Shown piece after piece: positions 3-9,900 of a DNA stretch of 49,221 nucleotides (positions within the stretch are counted from its first letter, which is position 1; each line of letters starts with the position of its first letter). Below the pieces are notes generated by a model. The model had not been told where the DNA came from and did not search any database. It worked only from the letters and a program-made list of their open reading frames with translations. The translations under genes were made by a program, and so were the position numbers. The stretch is taken from NCBI GenBank assembly GCA_049512315.1, contig JBEKXF010000008.1, forward strand, positions 62,001 to 111,221. Reading direction: 5' to 3'. The stretch comes from Candidatus Aminicenantales bacterium (lineage in GTDB: Bacteria > Acidobacteriota > Aminicenantia > Aminicenantales > Saccharicenantaceae).

Positions 3-356
3 ACCACAGAGACCGTCAAGATCCTCCGGGACAAGGGCATCGACGAGGCCATTATCCAGGCCGTCCAGGCCCATGCCGGCAAGGTGCCCTGCCTGACGCC
101 GATGGACTGGGCCATTTTTTCCATCGACCCTCTGACCGGGCTGATCATCGCCGCGACCCTGATGCATCCCGATAAAAAGCTCAAGGGGATCGACCTTGAG
201 TTCGTCAAGCGGCGCTACAAGGAGAAAAGCTTCGCCCGGGGAGCGCGGCGCGAGGAGATCGAACAGTGTGTCAACCTCGGCCTCGGCCTGGACGAGTTCA
301 TCTCCATCGCCATCGCGGCCATGCAGGGGATCGACCAGGACCTCGGCCTGGCCTAG
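3..356 (+). CDS. HD-domain (HDIG-type) metal-dependent hydrolase, 5'-partial
   Basis: Frame open from position 3 (TTETVKILRDKGIDEAIIQAVQAHAG...DPLTGLIIAATL...KSFARGARREEI), typical of the C-terminal half of this family; start lies outside the window. Confidence 0.8.
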   Translation, partial: TTETVKILRDKGIDEAIIQAVQAHAGKVPCLTPMDWAIFSIDPLTGLIIAATLMHPDKKLKGIDLEFVKRRYKEKSFARGARREEIEQCVNLGLGLDEFISIAIAAMQGIDQDLGLA

Positions 357-2311
357 AACAGCCCCGCTTTGAGCCCCACCTCAAGGAACCTCCCCCTCCA
401 GGGGAAGCCCAGTTCCGTGTAGAAATAGTGGTTGAAGACGTTGGTGACGCGGATGAAGGGCTCGAAATCCCCGACGGCATAGCTCAGGACGGCGTCGAGG
501 CTGAAATAACTGGGGATGGTCAGGAGCGCCGACGTGCTCGAGTTCCAGTACCATGACTCGGAAGCCAGGATGCCGGTCAGGCCGAGGCGCAGGCGGCTCA
601 GGGCCCTGAATCCTACCTCGAACGTCCCGTTATGCTTCGGGAGGGCATCGAGCGGCCGGTTGTCCGTCTCGTCCCTGTGGTCGAGGAATGTATAGTTCAG
701 CAGGGTGTCGAGCCCGAACCCTCCGCAGGTCCATGCCCTCTGGGCCTGGAGCTCGAAGCCGTTGATCCGGGCTTTGTTGATGTTGTAATACCGCCGCGTT
801 CCGTCGGGCAGCAGGACTGTATTGATGAAGTCGCGGAGCGTGTTCAGGAAGAACGACCCGGTCAGGAAGAATCCCTTGTTGTAGGTCGCCGAGAGCTCAA
901 AACTCCGGCCGAACTCGCTCTTGAGGTCGGGGTTCCCGCTCGAAAAGGAATAGAGCGACCGCATCGAGGGGAACTTGGATTTCGTGGCATAGGAGATATG
1001 GATGTCCAGGGCGTCGATCGGCGAATACTTGAGGCCCACCAGGGGATTGACCTTCGTCGTCGTCCCGCCGATGAACTTGCGGAGGCTGTCGACGCTGGCG
1101 CCCACGATGAGCTTCCAGTCCTCGAGGAAGCTGATGTGGTCCTCGAGCCCGACCGAGAACATCTTCTGCTGGTACCCGTACCAGGGCAGGGCCGTATCGT
1201 CTTGCTGGCGGGTCTTGTCGGCCTCATAATAGACGCTAGCCTTCAGGGAATTCCACGACGCCGGCGAGTACTCGCCGAGCCCGAAGAAACCATAGATGGG
1301 GTTATCATAGGTGCTCTCGGCCGAGAGGGCGGCCATCGAGCCGTTGGCGTACTGGTCCAGGACGTTGTAATAACTCACGTAGTAGCCCCGGAAGCGGACG
1401 AAGGCCTTGTCCCCGATCGATGTGTACCCGCCCGCGCTGACCGAGGTCCGGTCCCAGTCCTTGAAGCGCCAGTAGCGGGCCCGCCCGAAGAGGGTCGGTG
1501 GAATGCCGTAGGCCGAATGATAGCGATCGGCGTTGATCATGATCTCACTCGTGCTCGAGGGGTTGTAGATGACTTTGCCGCTCAGGTTGAACCGCTGGTA
1601 GTCGCTCAGGAGACGGTCCTGCTTGACGCCGGAGGGGTCCGTGTAGCGAAAGCCGCCGGAGTCCTGATAGAGGGCGGAGGCCACAACTCCCACCTTGCCG
1701 AGCTGGAGGGCCGTATCGGCCCCGGCGCCCCGGGTGTTCTGGTTGCCCATCGCCAGCGTGAGGTAGACCCTCGGGTCTGAGGTCGGGCGCCGGGTGATGA
1801 CATTGACGATCCCGCCCAGGGTGTTCGGGCCGTAGAGGACCGAGGACGGGCCCTTGGTGATCTGCATGGACTGGACGCCGCCCGTGGAGACGGTCTTGAG
1901 GTCGAAGGTCCCGAAATAGGGCTCGACGATGGGGACCCCGTCGACGAGCAGGGCGATCCGCCCCGAGTCGATCCCGCGGAGCTTCAGGGTGTATTCACCT
2001 TTCCCCCCGAGGGTGACCGTAGCTCCCGGGGCGTAATTAAGGACCTCCGACAGGTCCAGGGGCCTCAGCTGCTGGATGGTCGTGGCTTCGATCGTGGTGA
2101 CGGTCGCCAACGGTATTTCCCGGGGCGCCTTGCCGATGACCTGGATCTCTTCCGTGATCCTGACCGGCTTTTCCTGTTCTTTTTCCTGCTCTTTTTTCGT
2201 CTTCTCCGGGGTTTGTTCCTGGCCGGCGAGGACGATCGGGCTCAGGCAGAGCCCGAAAGCGACCAGGACCAAAGCGAGGATCGCGAGGGGGGAGGAAACC
2301 GGACGCTTCAT
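353..2311 (-). CDS. TonB-dependent outer-membrane receptor (metal-chelate/cofactor type)
   Basis: Signal peptide, TonB-box-like EEIQVIG, plug motif GPSSVLYGPNTLGGIVNVIT, GNPDLKSE barrel motif, C-terminal Phe; SD AAGGAG. Confidence 0.92.
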   Translation of the reverse strand: MKRPVSSPLAILALVLVAFGLCLSPIVLAGQEQTPEKTKKEQEKEQEKPVRITEEIQVIGKAPREIPLATVTTIEATTIQQLRPLDLSEVLNYAPGATVTLGGKGEYTLKLRGIDSGRIALLVDGVPIVEPYFGTFDLKTVSTGGVQSMQITKGPSSVLYGPNTLGGIVNVITRRPTSDPRVYLTLAMGNQNTRGAGADTALQLGKVGVVASALYQDSGGFRYTDPSGVKQDRLLSDYQRFNLSGKVIYNPSSTSEIMINADRYHSAYGIPPTLFGRARYWRFKDWDRTSVSAGGYTSIGDKAFVRFRGYYVSYYNVLDQYANGSMAALSAESTYDNPIYGFFGLGEYSPASWNSLKASVYYEADKTRQQDDTALPWYGYQQKMFSVGLEDHISFLEDWKLIVGASVDSLRKFIGGTTTKVNPLVGLKYSPIDALDIHISYATKSKFPSMRSLYSFSSGNPDLKSEFGRSFELSATYNKGFFLTGSFFLNTLRDFINTVLLPDGTRRYYNINKARINGFELQAQRAWTCGGFGLDTLLNYTFLDHRDETDNRPLDALPKHNGTFEVGFRALSRLRLGLTGILASESWYWNSSTSALLTIPSYFSLDAVLSYAVGDFEPFIRVTNVFNHYFYTELGFPWRGRFLEVGLKAGLF

Positions 2312-2315
2312 GACG

Positions 2316-2414
2316 TTCTCCTTTTCGAGAAGGGGAGGAAAAACCGTTTCCCGTTTTTCCCTATCGGTCGGAGGGCGTGGCCACTGAGGGCGTTAGCGCC
2401 TCGGACTCGGAGAC
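2316..2414 (-). ncRNA. Moco/Tuco RNA motif (molybdenum/tungsten-cofactor riboswitch candidate)
   Basis: Minus strand reads UCUCCGAG...CUAA...GAUAGGG-AAAAACGG-GAAA-CGGUUUUU-CCUCCC...GAAAAGGAGA: conserved Moco-motif blocks, a GAAA-tetraloop stem, and a P1 (UCUCC/GGAGA) that covers the receptor's SD. Confidence 0.78.
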
Positions 2415-2421
2415 GCGGCGT

Positions 2422-2450
2422 ATCATAGCAAGAGTTTGGGACCAGGTCAA
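2422..2450 (-). promoter_or_regulatory. sigma70-type promoter for riboswitch + TonB receptor
   Basis: TTGACC-N17-TATGAT with extended TG, directly upstream of the RNA motif. Confidence 0.75.
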
Positions 2451-2512
2451 CTTTATTCCGTGCCGGACCCGGCCTTCTCAGCCCCGGACAATACGTCCGG
2501 CCCGAGCCCGGG

Positions 2513-3928
2513 CTATTTCGCCGGCCGCACCTGGAGCTTGCTGTGGCGGACGCCGTAGAGGAAGTAGATCAGGAGCCCGACCAAGAGCCAGACGCCGAAG
2601 CGGATCCAGGTGATCTTCGGCAGGCTGTACATCAGGTAGAAGCAGAAGGCGACCGTGACGAGCGGGGTGAAAGGGACGCCCGGCGTCCTGAACTTCCGCT
2701 CGACCTCGGGCCGCGTCTTCCTCAGGACAATGACGCCCACGGAGACGAGGACGAAGGCGAAGAGAGTCCCGATGTTGCAGAGGTCGATGATCATCGGCAG
2801 CGGGAAGAGGCCGGCGATGACCGCCGTCGCGACGCCCGTGATCCAGGTGCAGATGTGGGGCGTCTTGTGCACCGGATGGACCCTGGAGAACCCGGCGGGC
2901 AGGAGCCCGTCGCGGGCCATGACCATGAAAATCCGGATCTGGCCGTAGAGGGTGACGAGCAGGGTCGAGATCATGCCGATGATGGCTCCCGTGGCGACAA
3001 TCGCCCCTCCCCACTGAATCCCGATCCGGGCCAGAGCGGCCGGCAGCGCGTTGCCGACGTCGATCAGTTTGTAGGGGACGATCCCCGTCAGGACGAAGGC
3101 CACCGAGACATAGAGGATGATGACGACGCCCAGGCAGAGCATGAGGCCCAGGGGGACGTCCTTTTTAGGGTTCTTGGTTTCCTCGGCCGCCGTGGAGACC
3201 GCGTCGAAGCCGATATAGGCGAAGAAGATGATGGCCGCCCCGGCCATGATGCCCTTCCAGCCGAACGGCATCATGGGTTGGAGGTTGGAGAGGCTCACGT
3301 GCCGGACGCCGAGGAAGACGAAGAGCAGGATGACGATGATCTTGACGAGGACGATGATATTGTTGATCTTGGCGCTCTCCTTGATCCCGATGTAGAGGAT
3401 CCAGGTGATGAGCAGGGTGATGACGATGGCCGGAACGTCCACGACGCCGCCCGAGAGGACGATCTTGCCGGCGGCATTGGTGGTGATGGGCGGCGTGAGC
3501 AGGGCCTTCGGCAGTTTGACGCCGGCGCTCTGGATGAGCCCGATGAACGTCGTCGACCAGCCCGAGGCCACGGCGCTCGCGGCGACCAGGTATTCGAGCA
3601 TCAGGTCCCAGCCGATGATCCAGGCGATGACCTCGCCGAAAGCGACGTAGGAATAGGAGTAGGTGCTGCCCGCGACCGGGAACATGCAGGCGAGCTCGGA
3701 ATAAGTCAGGGCGCAGAACCCGCAGGTGACGGCGGCGATGATGAACGACAGGAGGACGCCCGGGCCCGCCAGCTGGGCCCCCTGGCCCGTGGCGACGAAG
3801 ATGCCCGTCCCGACGACCGATCCGATGCCCAGGGCGGCCAGGTCGATCGCCCTCAGGTTCTTCTTGAGTTGCGAGTGCTCCGAGGCCTCGTCGATCTGCG
3901 CCGGGGTTTTGGTGATCCAGATATTCAT
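2513..3928 (-). CDS. APC-superfamily amino acid permease
   Basis: GIGSVVGTGIF, GSTYSYSY and FFAYIGFDAVSTAAEE motifs; many TM helices. Confidence 0.95.
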   Translation of the reverse strand: MNIWITKTPAQIDEASEHSQLKKNLRAIDLAALGIGSVVGTGIFVATGQGAQLAGPGVLLSFIIAAVTCGFCALTYSELACMFPVAGSTYSYSYVAFGEVIAWIIGWDLMLEYLVAASAVASGWSTTFIGLIQSAGVKLPKALLTPPITTNAAGKIVLSGGVVDVPAIVITLLITWILYIGIKESAKINNIIVLVKIIVILLFVFLGVRHVSLSNLQPMMPFGWKGIMAGAAIIFFAYIGFDAVSTAAEETKNPKKDVPLGLMLCLGVVIILYVSVAFVLTGIVPYKLIDVGNALPAALARIGIQWGGAIVATGAIIGMISTLLVTLYGQIRIFMVMARDGLLPAGFSRVHPVHKTPHICTWITGVATAVIAGLFPLPMIIDLCNIGTLFAFVLVSVGVIVLRKTRPEVERKFRTPGVPFTPLVTVAFCFYLMYSLPKITWIRFGVWLLVGLLIYFLYGVRHSKLQVRPAK

Positions 3929-4077: not shown

Positions 4078-4746
4078 ATGAGGATCGTCGCCGCCGTGGG
4101 TCTTTCCGAGACGGGGAAGACCCTTCTTCTCACCGGGCTCATCAGCGAGTTCAAGCGGAGGGGTCTGCGGACGTTCGCCGTCAAGCACTGCGCCCACGGG
4201 TTCATGCTGGACACGGAGGGCAAGGACACCTGGAAGTACGCCCGGGCGGGGGCCGACGGGGTGGCCATGGTCTCGTCCGAGGAGTGGGCCGTCCTTCAAC
4301 GGGCGAGGGACGTCGGCCTGCGGGCCCTGGCCGGAAAGGCGTTCGACGGAGCGGACATCGTCCTCCTCGAAGGCGGGAAAGAGGCGCGCGGGATCAGGAA
4401 GATCGAAGTCCTGCGCTCCGGCGTCTCTGACATCGTCCAGACGCCTCCGGACGAGCTCCTGGCCGTCGTCTCGGACCGCGGCGCCCCGCCGGGGACGGCC
4501 GTCCCCGTTTTCACGCTGTCGCAGACGGCCGAGATCTGCGACCTGATCCTGTCCCAGGGGGAGGACGCGATGCCGGAAATCAAGCTGGAAGTGGATGGCC
4601 GGGAAGTCATCCTGAATCCGTTCGTCCGGACCTTCATCGAGAGAACGGTCCTGGGCATGGTCACGTCCCTGAGCGGAATCGACCCGGACCCGAGAAAGAT
4701 CTCTCTCGTCATCGACCGGGACGGGCCGTCCCCGAAGAAACCCTGA
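4078..4746 (+). CDS. mobB: Molybdopterin-guanine dinucleotide biosynthesis protein B with C-terminal extension
   Basis: P-loop GLSETGKT, VKHCAHGF.LD.EGKDTWKY..AGA, DIVLLEG; C-terminal LEVDGREVILNPFV domain. Confidence 0.88.
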   Translation: MRIVAAVGLSETGKTLLLTGLISEFKRRGLRTFAVKHCAHGFMLDTEGKDTWKYARAGADGVAMVSSEEWAVLQRARDVGLRALAGKAFDGADIVLLEGGKEARGIRKIEVLRSGVSDIVQTPPDELLAVVSDRGAPPGTAVPVFTLSQTAEICDLILSQGEDAMPEIKLEVDGREVILNPFVRTFIERTVLGMVTSLSGIDPDPRKISLVIDRDGPSPKKP

Positions 4747-4770: not shown

Positions 4771-5418
4771 GTGACGGAATCGTCTCTCAAGTTCGCCAAG
4801 GATTATTTTTCGCGGCGGGACCCCGCCGTCCTGGACATCCTCCGCCGGAGCTCGGTCGGGATTGCGGGGGCCGGGGGGCTGGGGTCCAACGTGGCGATCT
4901 CGCTGGCCCGGGCCGGGGTCGGCCGCCTCGTGATCGCCGACTTCGATCGGATCGAGCCCTCGAATCTCAACCGGCAGCAGTATTACGTCGACCAGGTCGG
5001 ACGGGTCAAGGTCGAGGCCCTCATGGAGAACCTCCTCAGGGTCAACCCGTTCTCCGTCTATGAAATCCACAACGTCAGGATCACCCGGAGAAACGCGGCC
5101 GGGATCTTCCGCTCGGTCGACGTCCTGGTCGAGGCCTTCGACAAGGCCGGGGCCAAGGAGATGCTGATCGAGGCCTGCCTCGGCCGCTTCCCGGGCCGGC
5201 CGATTGTGGCGGCTTCGGGCCTCGCGGGGTACGGGAAAAACCGGAAGCTCCGGGCCCGCCGGCTGGGGAACCTCTATATCTGCGGCGACGAGGAAAGCCA
5301 GTGCCCGGCAGGCGTCAGTCCGATGGCGCCGCGGGTAGGCATTGTCGCTAACATGCAGGCCAACCTGGTCGTGGAACTGCTTGTCAAAATGAGAGGTCAT
5401 CATGTTCAAGGTCAATGA
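4771..5418 (+). CDS. thiF: Sulfur-carrier protein adenylyltransferase (ThiF/MoeB/E1 family)
   Basis: [29 protein letters not shown]-terminus [14 protein letters not shown] of short ThiF proteins. Confidence 0.85.
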
Positions 5419-5829: not shown

Positions 5830-7410
5830 TTAGAGGCTTTTCTGCGTCCAGTCGCCATCGATCAGCCGCCACATTTTTCCAGTGGGGTTTTCGTCGCGCA
5901 ATTCCACGGGCAGACGGCCCGGTCGCACGTGATCGTAGCACTGAAGGGCGGCGAACCTGAGGATCGAGGCCGGAAAACCAACCGCAGTGAACCCCGGGTG
6001 CCCGGTGGCGGGGTAGGGGCCGCCGTGGTTCATGGCTGGCGAGACGGCGACGCCCGTGGGCATCCGGTCGTTCAGCAGCCGGCCGGACTTCCGCCGGAGA
6101 AAGGGCTCGATCGCATCATGGACGGCGTCATCATGGCCGCCGCTGTGGCTATAAATCGTCGCCGTCAGCTGACCTTCCAGGCTGGACGCGATCTCCTTTA
6201 ACTCGCCGATGTCCCGCGCCAGGACGATCAAGGACAGGGTTCCGAAGGATTCGACCTGGAAATACCTCGGGTTCCGGAGAAATCCGGCGCCTGAAAGGAG
6301 GAAAAGCGTAGGCTGGAACCTGAATCCCGGGCCGCCAGCTTCTCGCCCTCCTGTGACGAGCTCGGCTCCCGACCGGGCGAGCCGGGCCGAGGCCTCCTTG
6401 AGCCCTTCGAGGACTTGCGGCCCAAGGAGAATTCCAGGCTCCGAGCTCACGTACAAATCCTTCACCTGCCCGATCAAGGCTCGACTCCCGGGACTGTCGA
6501 CGAGAACCACGAGCCCCGGCCTCGTGCACATCTGACCCGAGCCGAGGAGGCAGGAATTGAAAAGCTCTCCGGCGATATCCGCCGCCCGTTCCTCGATCGC
6601 CCCAGGAAGAATGAAGACCGGGTTGGCGCTCGACATCTCGACGTAGATGGGTTTTCCCGCCCGGTCGGCGGCCTCCTTGAGCTTCATCCCGGCCGCGCGG
6701 CTGCCGGTGAACGCCGTCGCCCCCACGGAAGGATGAGACACGAGCCGCAGGCCCTCCTCTGCGGCGAAATGATAGAGAACCTGGACGGCCGCTCCGGGCA
6801 ATCCCGAAGCCTTGAGGGATTCGGGGGCCGCCCCGGCGAGGATCCGCGTTGTCCCGGGATGCCCCGGGTTCGCTTTGGCGATCACGGGGTTTCCGGCGGC
6901 CAGCGCGGCCGCAAAATCTCCGCCGGCGACGGCGTTGAAGGCGAAGGGAAAATTGTTCGGGCTGAAGATGATGACCGGGCCGCCGAGCGGGGCGTATTTC
7001 GAACGGATGTCGAGCTTCGTGTCGATGGTGGCCCGGCACCAGGAACGGTCACGGCAGGCCTGGGCCGCTTGACGGAGCTGATCGACCAGGCGGGGGAACT
7101 CCACGGACCTGAGACGCGGTTCAACCGGGAGGGCCGTTTCGAGATGGGCCATCGCCACGAGTTCCTCGCGGCGGCCATCGACCTTTTCGGCGAACGCCTC
7201 GAGAAACGCGGCGATCCGGTCCGGGCCGGCCCGGGCAAGCTCATCGACGGCCTGGGCCGCGGCTTCAAGAGCGTCCTTGATGTCCGTCCATGTGGAAATC
7301 GGGTAGGCGCCGGGAAGATGCTTCCCGGTCCCAGGGTCGATCGTACTGAAAGACCCGGCGGGATGGGAGGCCTGCCGCCATTCTCCGTCGATCAGGATTT
7401 CATGAATCAT
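5830..7410 (-). CDS. NAD(P)+-dependent aldehyde dehydrogenase (alpha-ketoglutarate semialdehyde dehydrogenase-like)
   Basis: PNNFPFAF, FTGS, EMSSANP, GQMCTRPG (catalytic Cys), HGGPYPAT; likely start ATG 7410, next to the moaD stop. Confidence 0.9.
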   Translation of the reverse strand: MIHEILIDGEWRQASHPAGSFSTIDPGTGKHLPGAYPISTWTDIKDALEAAAQAVDELARAGPDRIAAFLEAFAEKVDGRREELVAMAHLETALPVEPRLRSVEFPRLVDQLRQAAQACRDRSWCRATIDTKLDIRSKYAPLGGPVIIFSPNNFPFAFNAVAGGDFAAALAAGNPVIAKANPGHPGTTRILAGAAPESLKASGLPGAAVQVLYHFAAEEGLRLVSHPSVGATAFTGSRAAGMKLKEAADRAGKPIYVEMSSANPVFILPGAIEERAADIAGELFNSCLLGSGQMCTRPGLVVLVDSPGSRALIGQVKDLYVSSEPGILLGPQVLEGLKEASARLARSGAELVTGGREAGGPGFRFQPTLFLLSGAGFLRNPRYFQVESFGTLSLIVLARDIGELKEIASSLEGQLTATIYSHSGGHDDAVHDAIEPFLRRKSGRLLNDRMPTGVAVSPAMNHGGPYPATGHPGFTAVGFPASILRFAALQCYDHVRPGRLPVELRDENPTGKMWRLIDGDWTQKSL

Positions 7411-7411
7411 C

Positions 7412-7639
7412 TCATCCCCCCGAGTAGAGAGGAGAGATGACGATCCGGTCGCCCTCACGGACCTCTTCGCCCGGGGCGACGGCCCGGCCGTTCCGGGTGA
7501 CGATCCGAGGCCGGGCTTTGTCGATGCCCACCAGAGCCAGGAGCCCCTCGACCGTCGACGACAGGGCGACCTCCATCTCCTTTTCGCTGAAGCCGAGCTG
7601 GTTGACGAACGGCCCGATCAGCTTGACGGTGATCTTCAT
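7412..7639 (-). CDS. MoaD/ThiS-family ubiquitin-like sulfur carrier
   Basis: 75 aa ending EGDRIVISPLYSGG (C-terminal GG); directly after aor. Confidence 0.9.
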   Translation of the reverse strand: MKITVKLIGPFVNQLGFSEKEMEVALSSTVEGLLALVGIDKARPRIVTRNGRAVAPGEEVREGDRIVISPLYSGG

Positions 7640-7683
7640 CGCTCTCTCCCGGGATGACCCTCGGGCTCTTCCCCGTCGCGATC

Positions 7684-9522
7684 TCAGGTCAGGGACCCGA
7701 ACTTTTCCGCCGCCTTGGCTTCCGCGGCCAGCCCGAGCCGTTCGAGCGTGGCCCGGGTCGGGATGCCGCGACGGTCGTAGCCGCGGATATCGTAGTAATG
7801 CAGGAGCAGCCCGTCGTACTTGTCATATTCGAGGTGCTGGCCGGCGATCGGTCCTTCCGTGTCGACGTTGGCCGGGTCGAACCAGACGGCCGGCGGGTAG
7901 TCGAGCTTCCGGTCGGTCTGGGGGTATTCCCTGAGCCAGAAAAGCTTGATCATGGCGTACACCCGGTCGGAGACCGTCCAGAAATCGTCCAGCGTCCAGT
8001 TGAGGCCGCTGACGGCGTTGAAATACTTCGGGTAGTTCTCGAGGCCCCAGCCGAGCTCGATCCAGGGGAAGCGGCAGGCCACGATGTACTCGAAGAGGCC
8101 GCCCCGGATCCGCTGAAGGTCGATAACTTTCTGGGCCTTCTCGGGTCCGTAGGACTCGCGGGAGGTCTGCTTGAGCTCAAAGGTGATGACCCAGGACTCC
8201 TTGTGATGGGCGCCGATCGGGCTGACCCCGAAGGCCAGGGCCATGCCCGGGATGAACTTGCAGTTATAGGCCGCGACTTCGAGGCCCTTGACCTGCATGG
8301 CGTAGGCTTCCGAGCCCTTGCCGATCTTCCTGGCAGCCCGGAGCGAGCCCTCGGCCAGGAGGTTGCCCACCTCGCCCTGACGAAGGGCGATGGCGGTCAG
8401 GATCTTCTTGAACTTCTCGGCCTCCCCGAACCTGATATCGCCGGCGACGGCGCCGTGGTCGACGGCGTCGGCGTAGAAGCTGAGGACGCAGCCGCCCGAC
8501 ATCGTGTCGATCCCGTAGTCGTCGCACATGTAGTTCAGGGCGGCGACCTGGGGCAGGTCGAAGATCTCCAGGTTGGGGCCGAGAAGCCCGACGTTCTCGT
8601 AGTCGAGCTCGGACTCGCGGCCTGCGTCGTCGTGGATGGTGATGCCGCAGCGCATGGTGCAGTTCGGGCAGCCGTAGGTGGCGATCCGGGCGTTGTTCAG
8701 CCTCTCACCGTCCACCTTCCAGGCGTCGGGATGGTGCGTTTTCCGGAAGTTCCGGACGGGGAGGGCCGCGACTTCGTTGCACCAGGCGAGGACCCCGGTC
8801 GTGCTCTGGATGGACCAGCCGGACTGCTTGTCGATCTCATGGACCTTCTTCAGGTCGTCATGGCCGAGCTTTTTCATCCCGGCCGGGTCCGCCTGGGGAA
8901 TAGGTTTCGTCCCCTTGGCGACGATGGCCTTGAGCCGCTTGGAGCCCATGACCGCGCCCATGCCGGGCCGGCCGCCCGCCCGGCCCTCCAGGCTGCGGAT
9001 GACGGCGTACCGGACCAGGTTCTCGCCGCCCTGGCCGATGTTGAGGACGCCGACCCCCTTGCCGTACTTGGCATAGATCCAGTCGTTCGTTGCATAGGTC
9101 CCTTTTCCCCAGACCTCATCGGCCGGGAGGAACTCGACCTTATCGTCCTCGATGTAGAGCATGGTCGGCCGGTCGGCCCGGCCCTCGACGATCAGGGCAT
9201 CGTAACCGCACCTGCGCAGGTGCTCGGTGATGCGGGTCCCGAGGTTGCCGTCTCCGTAGCCTCCCGTGATGGGGGACTTGGCGGCCACGACCGTTTTCCC
9301 TGTGTTCGGGGCGGGGATGCCGGCGATGGGGCCGACGGCCACGATGAGCTTGTTGTCGGGGCCCAGGGGATCGATGCCGGGCTTGAGCTCGTCGTAAAGG
9401 ATCTTGACGGCGAAACCGCGTCCGCCGATCCACTTGCGGGCGAATTCCTCGGAAAAGGTCTCGATCTTGGACGTTTTCGTCGTCAGGTTGACTCTCAGGA
9501 TCTGCCCGGTCCAGCCGTTCAT
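7684..9522 (-). CDS. aor: Aldehyde:ferredoxin oxidoreductase (tungstopterin family)
   Basis: GQILRVNLT, WIGGRG, KSPITGG, GMGAVMGSKRLKA, CPNC...C, DDYGIDT, VACRF, YYDIRGYD..GIP. Confidence 0.95.
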   Translation of the reverse strand: MNGWTGQILRVNLTTKTSKIETFSEEFARKWIGGRGFAVKILYDELKPGIDPLGPDNKLIVAVGPIAGIPAPNTGKTVVAAKSPITGGYGDGNLGTRITEHLRRCGYDALIVEGRADRPTMLYIEDDKVEFLPADEVWGKGTYATNDWIYAKYGKGVGVLNIGQGGENLVRYAVIRSLEGRAGGRPGMGAVMGSKRLKAIVAKGTKPIPQADPAGMKKLGHDDLKKVHEIDKQSGWSIQSTTGVLAWCNEVAALPVRNFRKTHHPDAWKVDGERLNNARIATYGCPNCTMRCGITIHDDAGRESELDYENVGLLGPNLEIFDLPQVAALNYMCDDYGIDTMSGGCVLSFYADAVDHGAVAGDIRFGEAEKFKKILTAIALRQGEVGNLLAEGSLRAARKIGKGSEAYAMQVKGLEVAAYNCKFIPGMALAFGVSPIGAHHKESWVITFELKQTSRESYGPEKAQKVIDLQRIRGGLFEYIVACRFPWIELGWGLENYPKYFNAVSGLNWTLDDFWTVSDRVYAMIKLFWLREYPQTDRKLDYPPAVWFDPANVDTEGPIAGQHLEYDKYDGLLLHYYDIRGYDRRGIPTRATLERLGLAAEAKAAEKFGSLT

Positions 9523-9558
9523 GATGAACTCCTCCGCGGATGGATGATTCCGCTTCCC

Positions 9559-9587
9559 ATCCTAAACGGACGGCCGGTTCGAGTCAA
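9559..9587 (-). promoter_or_regulatory. sigma70-type promoter of aor operon
   Basis: TTGACT-N17-TAGGAT on the minus strand; SD GGAGG before ATG 9522. Confidence 0.6.
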
Positions 9588-9699
9588 GGGGAATGCCTGG
9601 CCGTTTTCCCGTCTCGCGGGCCGAATGAGGGCGAAAAAAGCAGAAATTTCGTATAATAGAGTGGACCCGGGACCCAACTCGGTGAAAGGAGCTCACGAC

Positions 9700-9900
9700 A
9701 TGCCCAAGAAGCTTTATCGGTCCGTGACCCAGAAGATGCTGGGTGGAGTCTGCGGCGGCCTGGCCGAGTATTTCGACATGGACGTCTCGCTCGTCCGGCT
9801 GATCTTCGTCGCTGTCTGCCTGGTCACGGCTGTTTTGCCGATGACCCTCTTCTACATGATCGCCTGGATCGTTGTGCCCATGGAGAAGCCCAAGCCCTAG
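9700..9900 (+). CDS. pspC: PspC-domain membrane protein
   Basis: KKLYRS...MLGGVCGGLAEYF..D.SLVRL...YMIAWIVVP; SD AAGGAG. Confidence 0.92.
   Translation: MPKKLYRSVTQKMLGGVCGGLAEYFDMDVSLVRLIFVAVCLVTAVLPMTLFYMIAWIVVPMEKPKP

Follow-up and report, generated by a model that had tools for sequence, protein, structure and literature searches.

A P3-less Moco/Tuco riboswitch before a TonB-dependent receptor gene of Aminicenantales: a candidate outer-membrane route for tungsten or molybdenum cofactor uptake

In the genome of a Candidatus Aminicenantales bacterium (GenBank assembly GCA_049512315.1), a stretch of 49,221 nucleotides (contig JBEKXF010000008.1, positions 62,001 to 111,221; hereafter the window) carries the gene of a TonB-dependent receptor whose mRNA leader belongs to the molybdenum cofactor/tungsten cofactor (Moco/Tuco) riboswitch family, RF01055. 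Match to the family model, covariation and conservation among homologous loci fully support the leader as a genuine Moco/Tuco riboswitch that lacks the P3 hairpin and whose P1 helix sequesters the Shine-Dalgarno sequence of the receptor gene. This regulatory interpretation is solid, and it places the receptor in the tungsten/molybdenum (W/Mo) cofactor supply system of these anaerobes. As to what the receptor carries, the best explanation is that it imports the ready-made W/Mo cofactor, to which we assign a probability of about one half.

The leader RNA lies at 2303..2424 on the minus strand and was matched by cmscan to RF01055 over the full model (positions 1-135) with 52.0 bits, compared to a gathering score of 36, and an E-value of 1.1e-9; a search of the whole genome gave the same result. 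P1, P2 with its CUAA bulge, P4 with its GAAA tetraloop and P5 are all in place, while the model positions of the P3 hairpin are deleted in the alignment and the linker between P2 and P4 consists only of CCG-AU-AGGG. P1 is formed by its 5′ strand, U2413-C2409, and by G2321-A2317, and the latter segment contains the entire GGAG of the Shine-Dalgarno sequence (2318..2321, minus strand, read from the sequence together with the cmscan alignment), located 6 nucleotides (nt) before the ATG at 2311-2309. No match to the cobalamin or thiamine pyrophosphate (TPP) riboswitch models was found on the leader and none to RF00174 in the window, where the leader RNA and two tRNAs are the only Rfam matches. Upstream of the RNA, a consensus scan located a sigma-70-type promoter on the minus strand, with the -35 hexamer TTGACC at 2445..2450 and, after a spacer of 17 nt, the -10 hexamer TATGAT at 2422..2427, preceded by TG. 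Ten of its 12 consensus positions match, and it is the sole promoter-like site in window positions 200-2700, for which shuffled sequences predict 0.4. Judging from the promoter spacing, transcription probably starts at about 2414-2416, immediately 5′ of P1. The first-pass annotation of this DNA had described a clean sigma70 promoter, a leader with the Moco-motif blocks, a P1 helix pairing with the Shine-Dalgarno sequence of the receptor, the lack of a P3 stem between P2 and P4, and mobB, thiF, moaD/thiS and aor within 7 kb; every one of these elements was confirmed where it had been placed, and the comparison with the Rfam Moco model that it had proposed gave the score above gathering reported here, free of any cobalamin or TPP match.

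Conservation of the leader was followed in homologous loci. A scan of genomes, taking one genome per prokaryote species, yielded 26 loci with relatives of the receptor at 40-79% identity, mostly from metagenome-assembled genomes labelled Candidatus Aminicenantes, and in 20 of them the receptor is immediately preceded by RF01055 (13 of 16 and 7 of 10 in its two parts). The start codon is included in the final 6-12 nt of the RNA match in 19 of these 20 linked loci; the 20th has a frame break. Among 22 aligned leaders all lack P3, with just 2-3 nt between P2 and P4, and the AAAGGAG within the 3′ strand of P1 is invariant (22/22) at 5-8 nt before the start codon. In a MAFFT alignment of the leaders, compensatory changes occur in 12 of the 27 predicted pairs; RNAalifold does not recover the short P5, for which the Rfam alignment is the sole source. 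A covariance model of our own, built from the 22 leaders, was then used on metagenomes and detected the RNA directly upstream of the receptor in 74 of 80 loci, some of which duplicate one another or the genome loci. In the alignment of these 74 leaders (67 distinct), which was fitted to the covariance model and hence favours the structure, 95.3% of cells are paired and 14 of the 27 pairs show compensatory changes; none of 500 shuffles reached any observed measure, and slid partners fall to 38-57% paired.

Loci that lack the RNA are few. The six genome loci gave no RNA even by our own model with filters off. Three of these (L020, L021 and L023) form a separate clade in which the receptor lies in a conserved operon (L020:1715-7386, L021, L023:1819-7502) of a PF00756 esterase, a GNAT acetyltransferase, the receptor and a sodium:solute symporter, and the other three (L016, L019 and L022) look like losses of the riboswitch. 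For two of the six metagenome misses, L045 and L060, the sequence does not extend upstream; the remaining four gave no Rfam match at E ≤ 0.1, and in two of them an upstream permease abuts the receptor. Thus the RNA is truly missing in ten of the twelve rechecked loci. The survey of homologues for the leader, which had also been proposed at the outset, therefore found it in most loci, and the few leaderless receptors lie outside B12 and classical iron clusters. Neither a binding-protein gene nor an iron-uptake gene was found beside the receptor in the 26 genome loci.

The receptor gene (353..2311, minus strand) encodes 652 residues with the Pfam domains Plug (PF07715, 7.8e-20) and TonB_dep_Rec_b-barrel (PF00593, 2.2e-37), arranged as a signal peptide, a Lys/Glu-rich linker, a candidate TonB box, the plug, a 22-strand barrel and a C-terminal Phe. 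The candidate box, ITEEIQV at residues 52-58, coincides with the invariant positions I52, T53, E54, E55, I56, V58 and G60, and from these columns at the expected place it may be the TonB box; TonB_C domains are present in the genome. An AlphaFold2 model, computed with an alignment of 85 rows, has a mean predicted local distance difference test score (pLDDT) of 83.6 and a predicted TM-score (pTM) of 0.83, and shows a plug within a barrel with short outer loops. Foldseek returned 276 matches at E ≤ 0.001, all of those listed being TonB-dependent transporters, with BtuB (1nqg) in first rank at TM-scores of 0.75/0.84 and 21% identity, followed by PqqU, PhuR, PirA, Cir, OprC and FrpB; the structure search thus places the receptor among small TonB-dependent transporters (BtuB, PqqU, OprC, CirA) and does not indicate a ligand. 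A profile search of solved structures also has E. coli BtuB at the top (7e-34). However, the match to the BtuB family TIGR01779 reaches 144.1 bits vs. a cut-off of 599.7 (NF007926, 99.7 vs. 836), and those to the siderophore and haem receptor families TIGR01783 and TIGR01785 are likewise below their cut-offs (120.9 bits vs. 223.5 and 123 vs. 316.85). Automatic database names of the homologues are divided between “cobalamin receptor” and “iron complex receptor.” A comparison of specificity residues between 19 riboswitch-linked receptors and three paralogues not linked to a riboswitch gave no substrate signal; nearly all residues invariant in the family, including the Arg/Trp-rich motif RYWxFxxWDR, are common to both.

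The own genome, which is 96.6% complete, contains exactly two Moco RNAs, both P3-less. One precedes the receptor, and the other precedes an operon of the order tupABC-moeA-moaC-MOSC-moaA-moaB, encoding a TupA-like binding protein, a permease, an ATPase, MoeA, MoaC, a MOSC protein, MoaA and a MoaB-like protein; the TupA-like assignment follows the sole NCBIfam match of the protein, to TupA with 218 bits, under the cut-off of 400. The sole cobalamin riboswitch of the genome lies directly before another Plug-domain TonB-dependent receptor of 661 residues (L031:385-2633, G000:C6), which is likely the true B12 receptor. The two proteins are 24% identical, and the receptor family is split from the cobalamin-riboswitch receptor with 99/99 tree support.

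Among 40 relatives, RF01055 is present in 34, which makes 35 of 41 when the own genome is counted, and mostly in two copies. The first gene behind 58 Moco RNA matches in these relatives is a TonB-dependent receptor in 27 cases, a PBP_like_2 (TupA-like) protein in 21, Peripla_BP_2 in six and other or unassignable in four, the last comprising one aldehyde dehydrogenase, one unnamed open reading frame (ORF), one gene cut by the contig end and one behind a sub-threshold RNA. Hence the receptor is the commonest target of Moco RNAs in this group. The six Peripla_BP_2-linked RNAs (L136, L139, L162, L164, L168 and L169) are longer and, in contrast to the leaders of the receptors, visibly possess the P3 hairpin; they come from relatives without pterin synthesis. 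Where more DNA was read, the Peripla_BP_2 gene is followed by FecCD or ATP-binding cassette (ABC) ATPase genes (operons in L172 and L173), an importer of the BtuF/BtuCD class, and the best solved matches of the riboswitch-linked binding proteins are 4ovk, 4hn9, 4pag and HI_1472 (E 8.9e-11). HI_1472 (PDB 3psa/3psh) is known as a binder of the oxyanions molybdate and tungstate. In a wider sample of the phylum, RF01055 was found in 30 of 151 genomes, and of the 29 best-scoring loci nine are placed before a receptor and 13 before MoaA, with one each before MoeA, MoaC, a ModA-like protein, a xanthine-dehydrogenase-like protein, a hydrogenase-like protein, an aldehyde dehydrogenase and an unnamed ORF. 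Eight of these nine receptors come from two families outside the class and are 37-43% identical to the window's over about 500 residues.

The distribution of cofactor-biosynthesis genes was compared in the 41 genomes, that is the own genome and the 40 relatives. MoaC, MoeA_N and the C-terminal domain of MoaA each occur in the same 27 genomes, and a TupA-like protein accompanies them in 26 of these 27 and in none of the other 14. The 14 genomes without MoaA, MoaC and MoeA belong to 11 genera, and three of them are single-contig (G025, G027 and G039); these three and G008 have no MoaB/Mog-type protein, save one PF00994 match in a frame of 434-472 residues. The enzymes that use the cofactor are present all the same, since 13 of the 14 have matches to AFOR_N, and the 14th (G038) has strong matches to the molybdopterin oxidoreductase domain (PF00384). 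An orthologue of the receptor (E ≤ 1e-60) is found in 13 of the 14 genomes that lack biosynthesis, vs. 20 of the 27 that have it, and in ten of the 14 it is placed behind a P3-less riboswitch; six of those ten also have a P3-containing Moco RNA before a Peripla_BP_2 importer; in G039, for example, nothing but the receptor is under such control. In a FastTree phylogeny of 24 complete riboswitch-linked receptors and the window's (three partial receptors were omitted from these 25 sequences), biosynthesis and biosynthesis-lacking groups are intermixed, with at least three changes between them, and the clade of the window's receptor is sister, with a support of 98, to the receptors of G008, G025, G027 and G038. 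MobB is above its cut-off in eight of the 14 genomes, and in G025, G027 and G033 its gene is divergent, at about 110-120 nt from the riboswitch-receptor unit. Because the riboswitch and the receptor have been kept in genomes without pterin synthesis, metal insertion and the tungstate pump, import of the finished or near-finished cofactor is the simplest explanation.

MoaE (PF02391) was found in 0 of the 41 genomes, although a control search was positive in 11 of 14 known genomes, and no hidden MoaE turned up at E ≤ 1 among the unassigned reading frames of the tup-moa operon in the own genome. Either MoaE has an unrecognised substitute or the pathway is incomplete even in the 27 genomes with MoaA, MoaC and MoeA. 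Since MoaE was found in none of the 41, genomes with moaA, moaC and moeA may partly depend on cofactor uptake too.

Taken together, the following scenario would account for the locus. The P3-less Moco riboswitch, of the tungsten-cofactor type, would form the 5′ leader of a single-gene receptor mRNA, and the RNA presumably binds the tungsten cofactor and represses the receptor gene. When the W (or Mo) pyranopterin cofactor is ample, the ligand would stabilize P1, the Shine-Dalgarno sequence would be sequestered and translation of the receptor would be turned off; when the cofactor is low, the ribosome site would open and the receptor would be made. Thereby the receptor would be part of a cofactor-supply regulon, analogous to BtuB under the cobalamin riboswitch, and its most likely substrate would be the finished metal-pterin cofactor, or something closely derived from it, that is picked up from the oxygen-free environment and brought through the outer membrane at the expense of TonB-transmitted energy. 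At odds slightly below even, the receptor family as a whole could be the outer-membrane entry for the intact W/Mo pyranopterin cofactor, so that many Aminicenantes and related anaerobes would be auxotrophs whose tungstoenzymes depend on cofactor set free by neighbours, as vitamin B12 is shared, with the riboswitch matching uptake to the internal pool. Concerning the first-pass annotation, its proposal of a receptor controlled, and repressed, through a cofactor-sensing leader agrees with the expression platform and its conservation, from which repression would follow; its further proposal that a large Mo/W species may be imported gained comparative support from gene content, tungstate or a chelate being further candidates.

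Several points weigh against import of the intact cofactor. The cofactor is notoriously labile, and we know of no documented free extracellular pool. A riboswitch of the same type also controls a TupA-like ABC transporter in the own genome, where most biosynthesis genes are present as well, and delivery of tungstate to TupABC would be a complete pathway there. A search of the own genome for an inner-membrane partner of the cofactor found none; its protein closest to the binding protein that G027 encodes behind a riboswitch shares 24% identity with it. The riboswitch-linked Peripla_BP_2 proteins of relatives resemble HI_1472, so that their importer need not carry a large ligand. In two biosynthesis-lacking genomes, G030 and G032, the receptor gene has no RNA before it, and, the genomes being kin and not independent, the pattern of the 14 may stem from few loss events. 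The single-sequence fold of the leader is unremarkable, no better than that of shuffles (z = -0.25), and uninformative; the evidence for the RNA comes from its covariance-model score and from covariation. Lastly, binding of the ligand by P3-less RNAs is not shown in vitro in the consulted excerpts of two papers on them (PMC2408646; PMC11725836).

Other substrates have therefore to be weighed. The receptor may instead take up metal, as trace tungstate or molybdate, a thio-oxyanion or a metallophore-bound form, which would be passed to the TupA-like protein for TupABC, with the riboswitch providing end-product feedback. The same P3-less RNA type controls the operon of the TupA-like ABC transporter, moeA and moa genes in the own genome and 21 relatives, so outer- and inner-membrane steps would form one regulon with nothing missing; the Foldseek neighbours include metal receptors such as OprC, and the paralogue clade not linked to a riboswitch, with its PF00756 esterase, hints at chelate-type ligands in the wider family, as PF00756 presumably includes siderophore esterases. 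Yet all 14 genomes without MoeA, MoaA and MoaC are also without the TupA-like protein, and 13 of them keep the receptor, ten under the riboswitch, which argues against plain tungstate as the substrate, because imported tungstate would have no known use where these proteins are absent. Moreover, the receptors of these genomes are not a separate clade, and the receptor is never beside an oxyanion binding-protein gene. We consider uptake of metal possible but rather unlikely. A supply of iron, as a siderophore or other iron complex and tied to the tungsten cofactor since tungstoenzymes are iron-rich, appears far-fetched, although in Eubacterium limosum two of five P3-less riboswitches lie before transporters annotated as iron ABC systems (PMC11725836, in excerpt), homologues are automatically named “iron complex outermembrane receptor protein,” and the paralogue clade is beside an esterase. 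With the ribosome site inside the ligand-stabilized P1, an OFF switch would cut iron import just when cofactor is ample and apo-enzymes need iron-sulfur clusters; FetABC1 of E. limosum rises under W limitation, according to the same excerpts (PMC11725836), which suits a role in supplying metal or cofactor better than a demand for iron; names with “iron” are family labels of a generic kind, the other half of the JGI names saying cobalamin; and no iron-uptake gene is a neighbour.

That an ordinary cobalamin receptor, BtuB, stands behind a Moco-like leader by chance is close to refuted, and we hold it to be the least credible of the readings. The best matches in NCBIfam, in PDB sequences and in structure are all BtuB, and JGI calls many homologues “outer membrane cobalamin receptor.” However, 144 bits are far under 599.7, identity to E. 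coli BtuB is 21%, the leader has no cobalamin riboswitch match, and the only cobalamin riboswitch of the genome precedes a different receptor, which shares 24% identity and is set apart in the tree at 99/99. Uptake of the finished cofactor stays our preferred reading.

Bacteria are generally held to make the Mo/W cofactor themselves owing to its instability. In the literature within our scope, that is outside subscription journals and bioRxiv supplements, no description was found of a Moco/Tuco riboswitch before a TonB-dependent receptor, nor of a bacterial uptake route for the Mo/W cofactor. A receptor that would be switched off by the cofactor, and that is retained by genomes which have lost the synthesis pathway and the tungstate pump yet encode several tungstoenzymes, offers a tangible candidate for this route; if the substrate is tungstate or a chelate, it would be the first TonB-dependent receptor assigned to W/Mo acquisition. 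Whichever the substrate, hundreds of database entries named “cobalamin receptor” or “iron complex receptor” are probably misnamed.

The RNA belongs to the same family (RF01055) as the E. coli moaA Moco riboswitch and its Tuco variants and has a translational platform with the ribosome site in P1; unlike in those examples, the controlled gene is that of an outer-membrane TonB-dependent receptor. In the survey that described the family, 58 of 176 Moco RNAs lacked P3 and were tied to tungsten-cofactor genes (Regulski et al., 2008; PMC2408646, consulted in excerpt). The targets it lists are inner-membrane transporters, biosynthesis genes and cofactor-using enzymes, and its main text has no mention of “TonB” or “outer membrane” (PMC2408646). 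The link of P3 loss with tungsten is a published correlation (PMC2408646; PMC11725836, both in excerpt), and the host carries genes of the tungsten type (AOR, an aldehyde:ferredoxin oxidoreductase, and TupA-like), in which it resembles the P3-less group of the literature. Like BtuB with the cobalamin riboswitch, the window holds a small 22-strand TonB-dependent receptor under a riboswitch that senses a finished cofactor, and BtuB is also the closest fold match; unlike BtuB, identity is about 21%, the riboswitch class is another one and the genome has a separate receptor under the cobalamin riboswitch. In E. limosum five P3-less riboswitches have been described, the targets of which go beyond tup and tungstoenzyme genes to “Fe ABC-type” transporters and FocA, and the authors read the extra transporters as iron uptake (PMC11725836, in excerpt). 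As in the Tuco regulon of that species, where some of the RNAs sequester the translation start, P3-less RNAs reach transporters without an obvious tungsten annotation (same excerpts); unlike in the window, E. limosum is Gram-positive, has no outer membrane, and no TonB-dependent receptor is involved.

MolBC-A (HI1470-72) of Haemophilus influenzae is a type II ABC importer called a molybdate transporter (PMC4031551, in excerpt). The Peripla_BP_2 proteins of the relatives, which match HI_1472 (E 8.9e-11) and are followed by FecCD or ABC ATPase genes, are like this system; the likeness concerns the inner-membrane system of the relatives and not the window's receptor, and the own genome is without a close orthologue. 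The genome paper of Pelobacter carbinolicus mentions outer-membrane channels “near” molybdopterin riboswitches, and, like the window, that genome has a BtuB-like receptor gene, the neighbours of which are moaD-2 and the gene of a tungsten AOR that has a Moco riboswitch. As a precedent it was rejected: its supplement puts the cobalamin riboswitch Pcar_R0067 directly above the receptor gene Pcar_0454 and the Moco riboswitch Pcar_R0068 above aorA-2, so that unlike in the window the receptor is not under Moco control. In the Caldithrix paper, TonB receptors are controlled by riboswitches for B12 and TPP, and the gene behind a Moco RNA is that of a major facilitator superfamily (MFS) transporter. 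A paper of 2025, seen in excerpt, reports that P. aeruginosa secretes its ModA, which docks on IcmP, a protein of the outer membrane.

As for the neighbouring genes, downstream of the receptor lies a convergent HD-domain gene (L004:9472-10356), and because this next gene is convergent the receptor is a single-gene, monocistronic unit. On the upstream side, MobB, ThiF, a nucleoside phosphorylase, an aldehyde dehydrogenase, a ThiS/MoaD-like protein and AOR are encoded within about 7 kb. By family search, MobB lies at 4078..4746 (plus strand), the ThiF/MoeB-type adenylyltransferase at 4771..5418 (plus strand) and the ThiS/MoaD-like sulfur carrier at 7412..7639 (minus strand), adjoining the gene of AOR at 7684..9522 (minus strand; AFOR_N 4.6e-75, AFOR_C 3.3e-96). 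The latter is one of three AFOR_N matches in the whole genome, and, being of the tungstopterin enzyme family, is likely a consumer of the cofactor. The aldehyde dehydrogenase family member (5830-7458, minus strand) is grouped with the ThiS-like gene and AOR; elsewhere, the Moco RNAs at L115 (G022) and L199 (G142) precede an aldehyde dehydrogenase gene. Antisense to AOR runs an ORF of 748 residues (7654-9900, plus strand), the sole family match of which is a C-terminal PspC domain (residues 685-744), and the real gene within it is probably much shorter.

Upstream of the receptor, in the same orientation, an amino-acid permease is encoded at 2513-3928 (minus strand), which is BcaP-like (588 bits vs. 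a cut-off of 690). It occupies this position in many loci, and in L076 and L102 it abuts the receptor and the riboswitch is gone; the adjacency is probably mere synteny. In L009 (234-782) and L026 (3215-3733), a small NTPase_1 gene of the THEP1 type (DUF2478 in L026) lies directly upstream of the riboswitch-receptor unit. Just past the tup-moa operon of the own genome, a pair resembling a ParE toxin and a ribbon-helix-helix antitoxin is encoded (L003:2453-2987, minus strand). Finally, the receptors of the window's genus (G001-G007) come from two clades; those of G004-G006 share 72-80% identity with the window's and those of G001-G003 share 53-55%, which hints at replacement or transfer within one genus.

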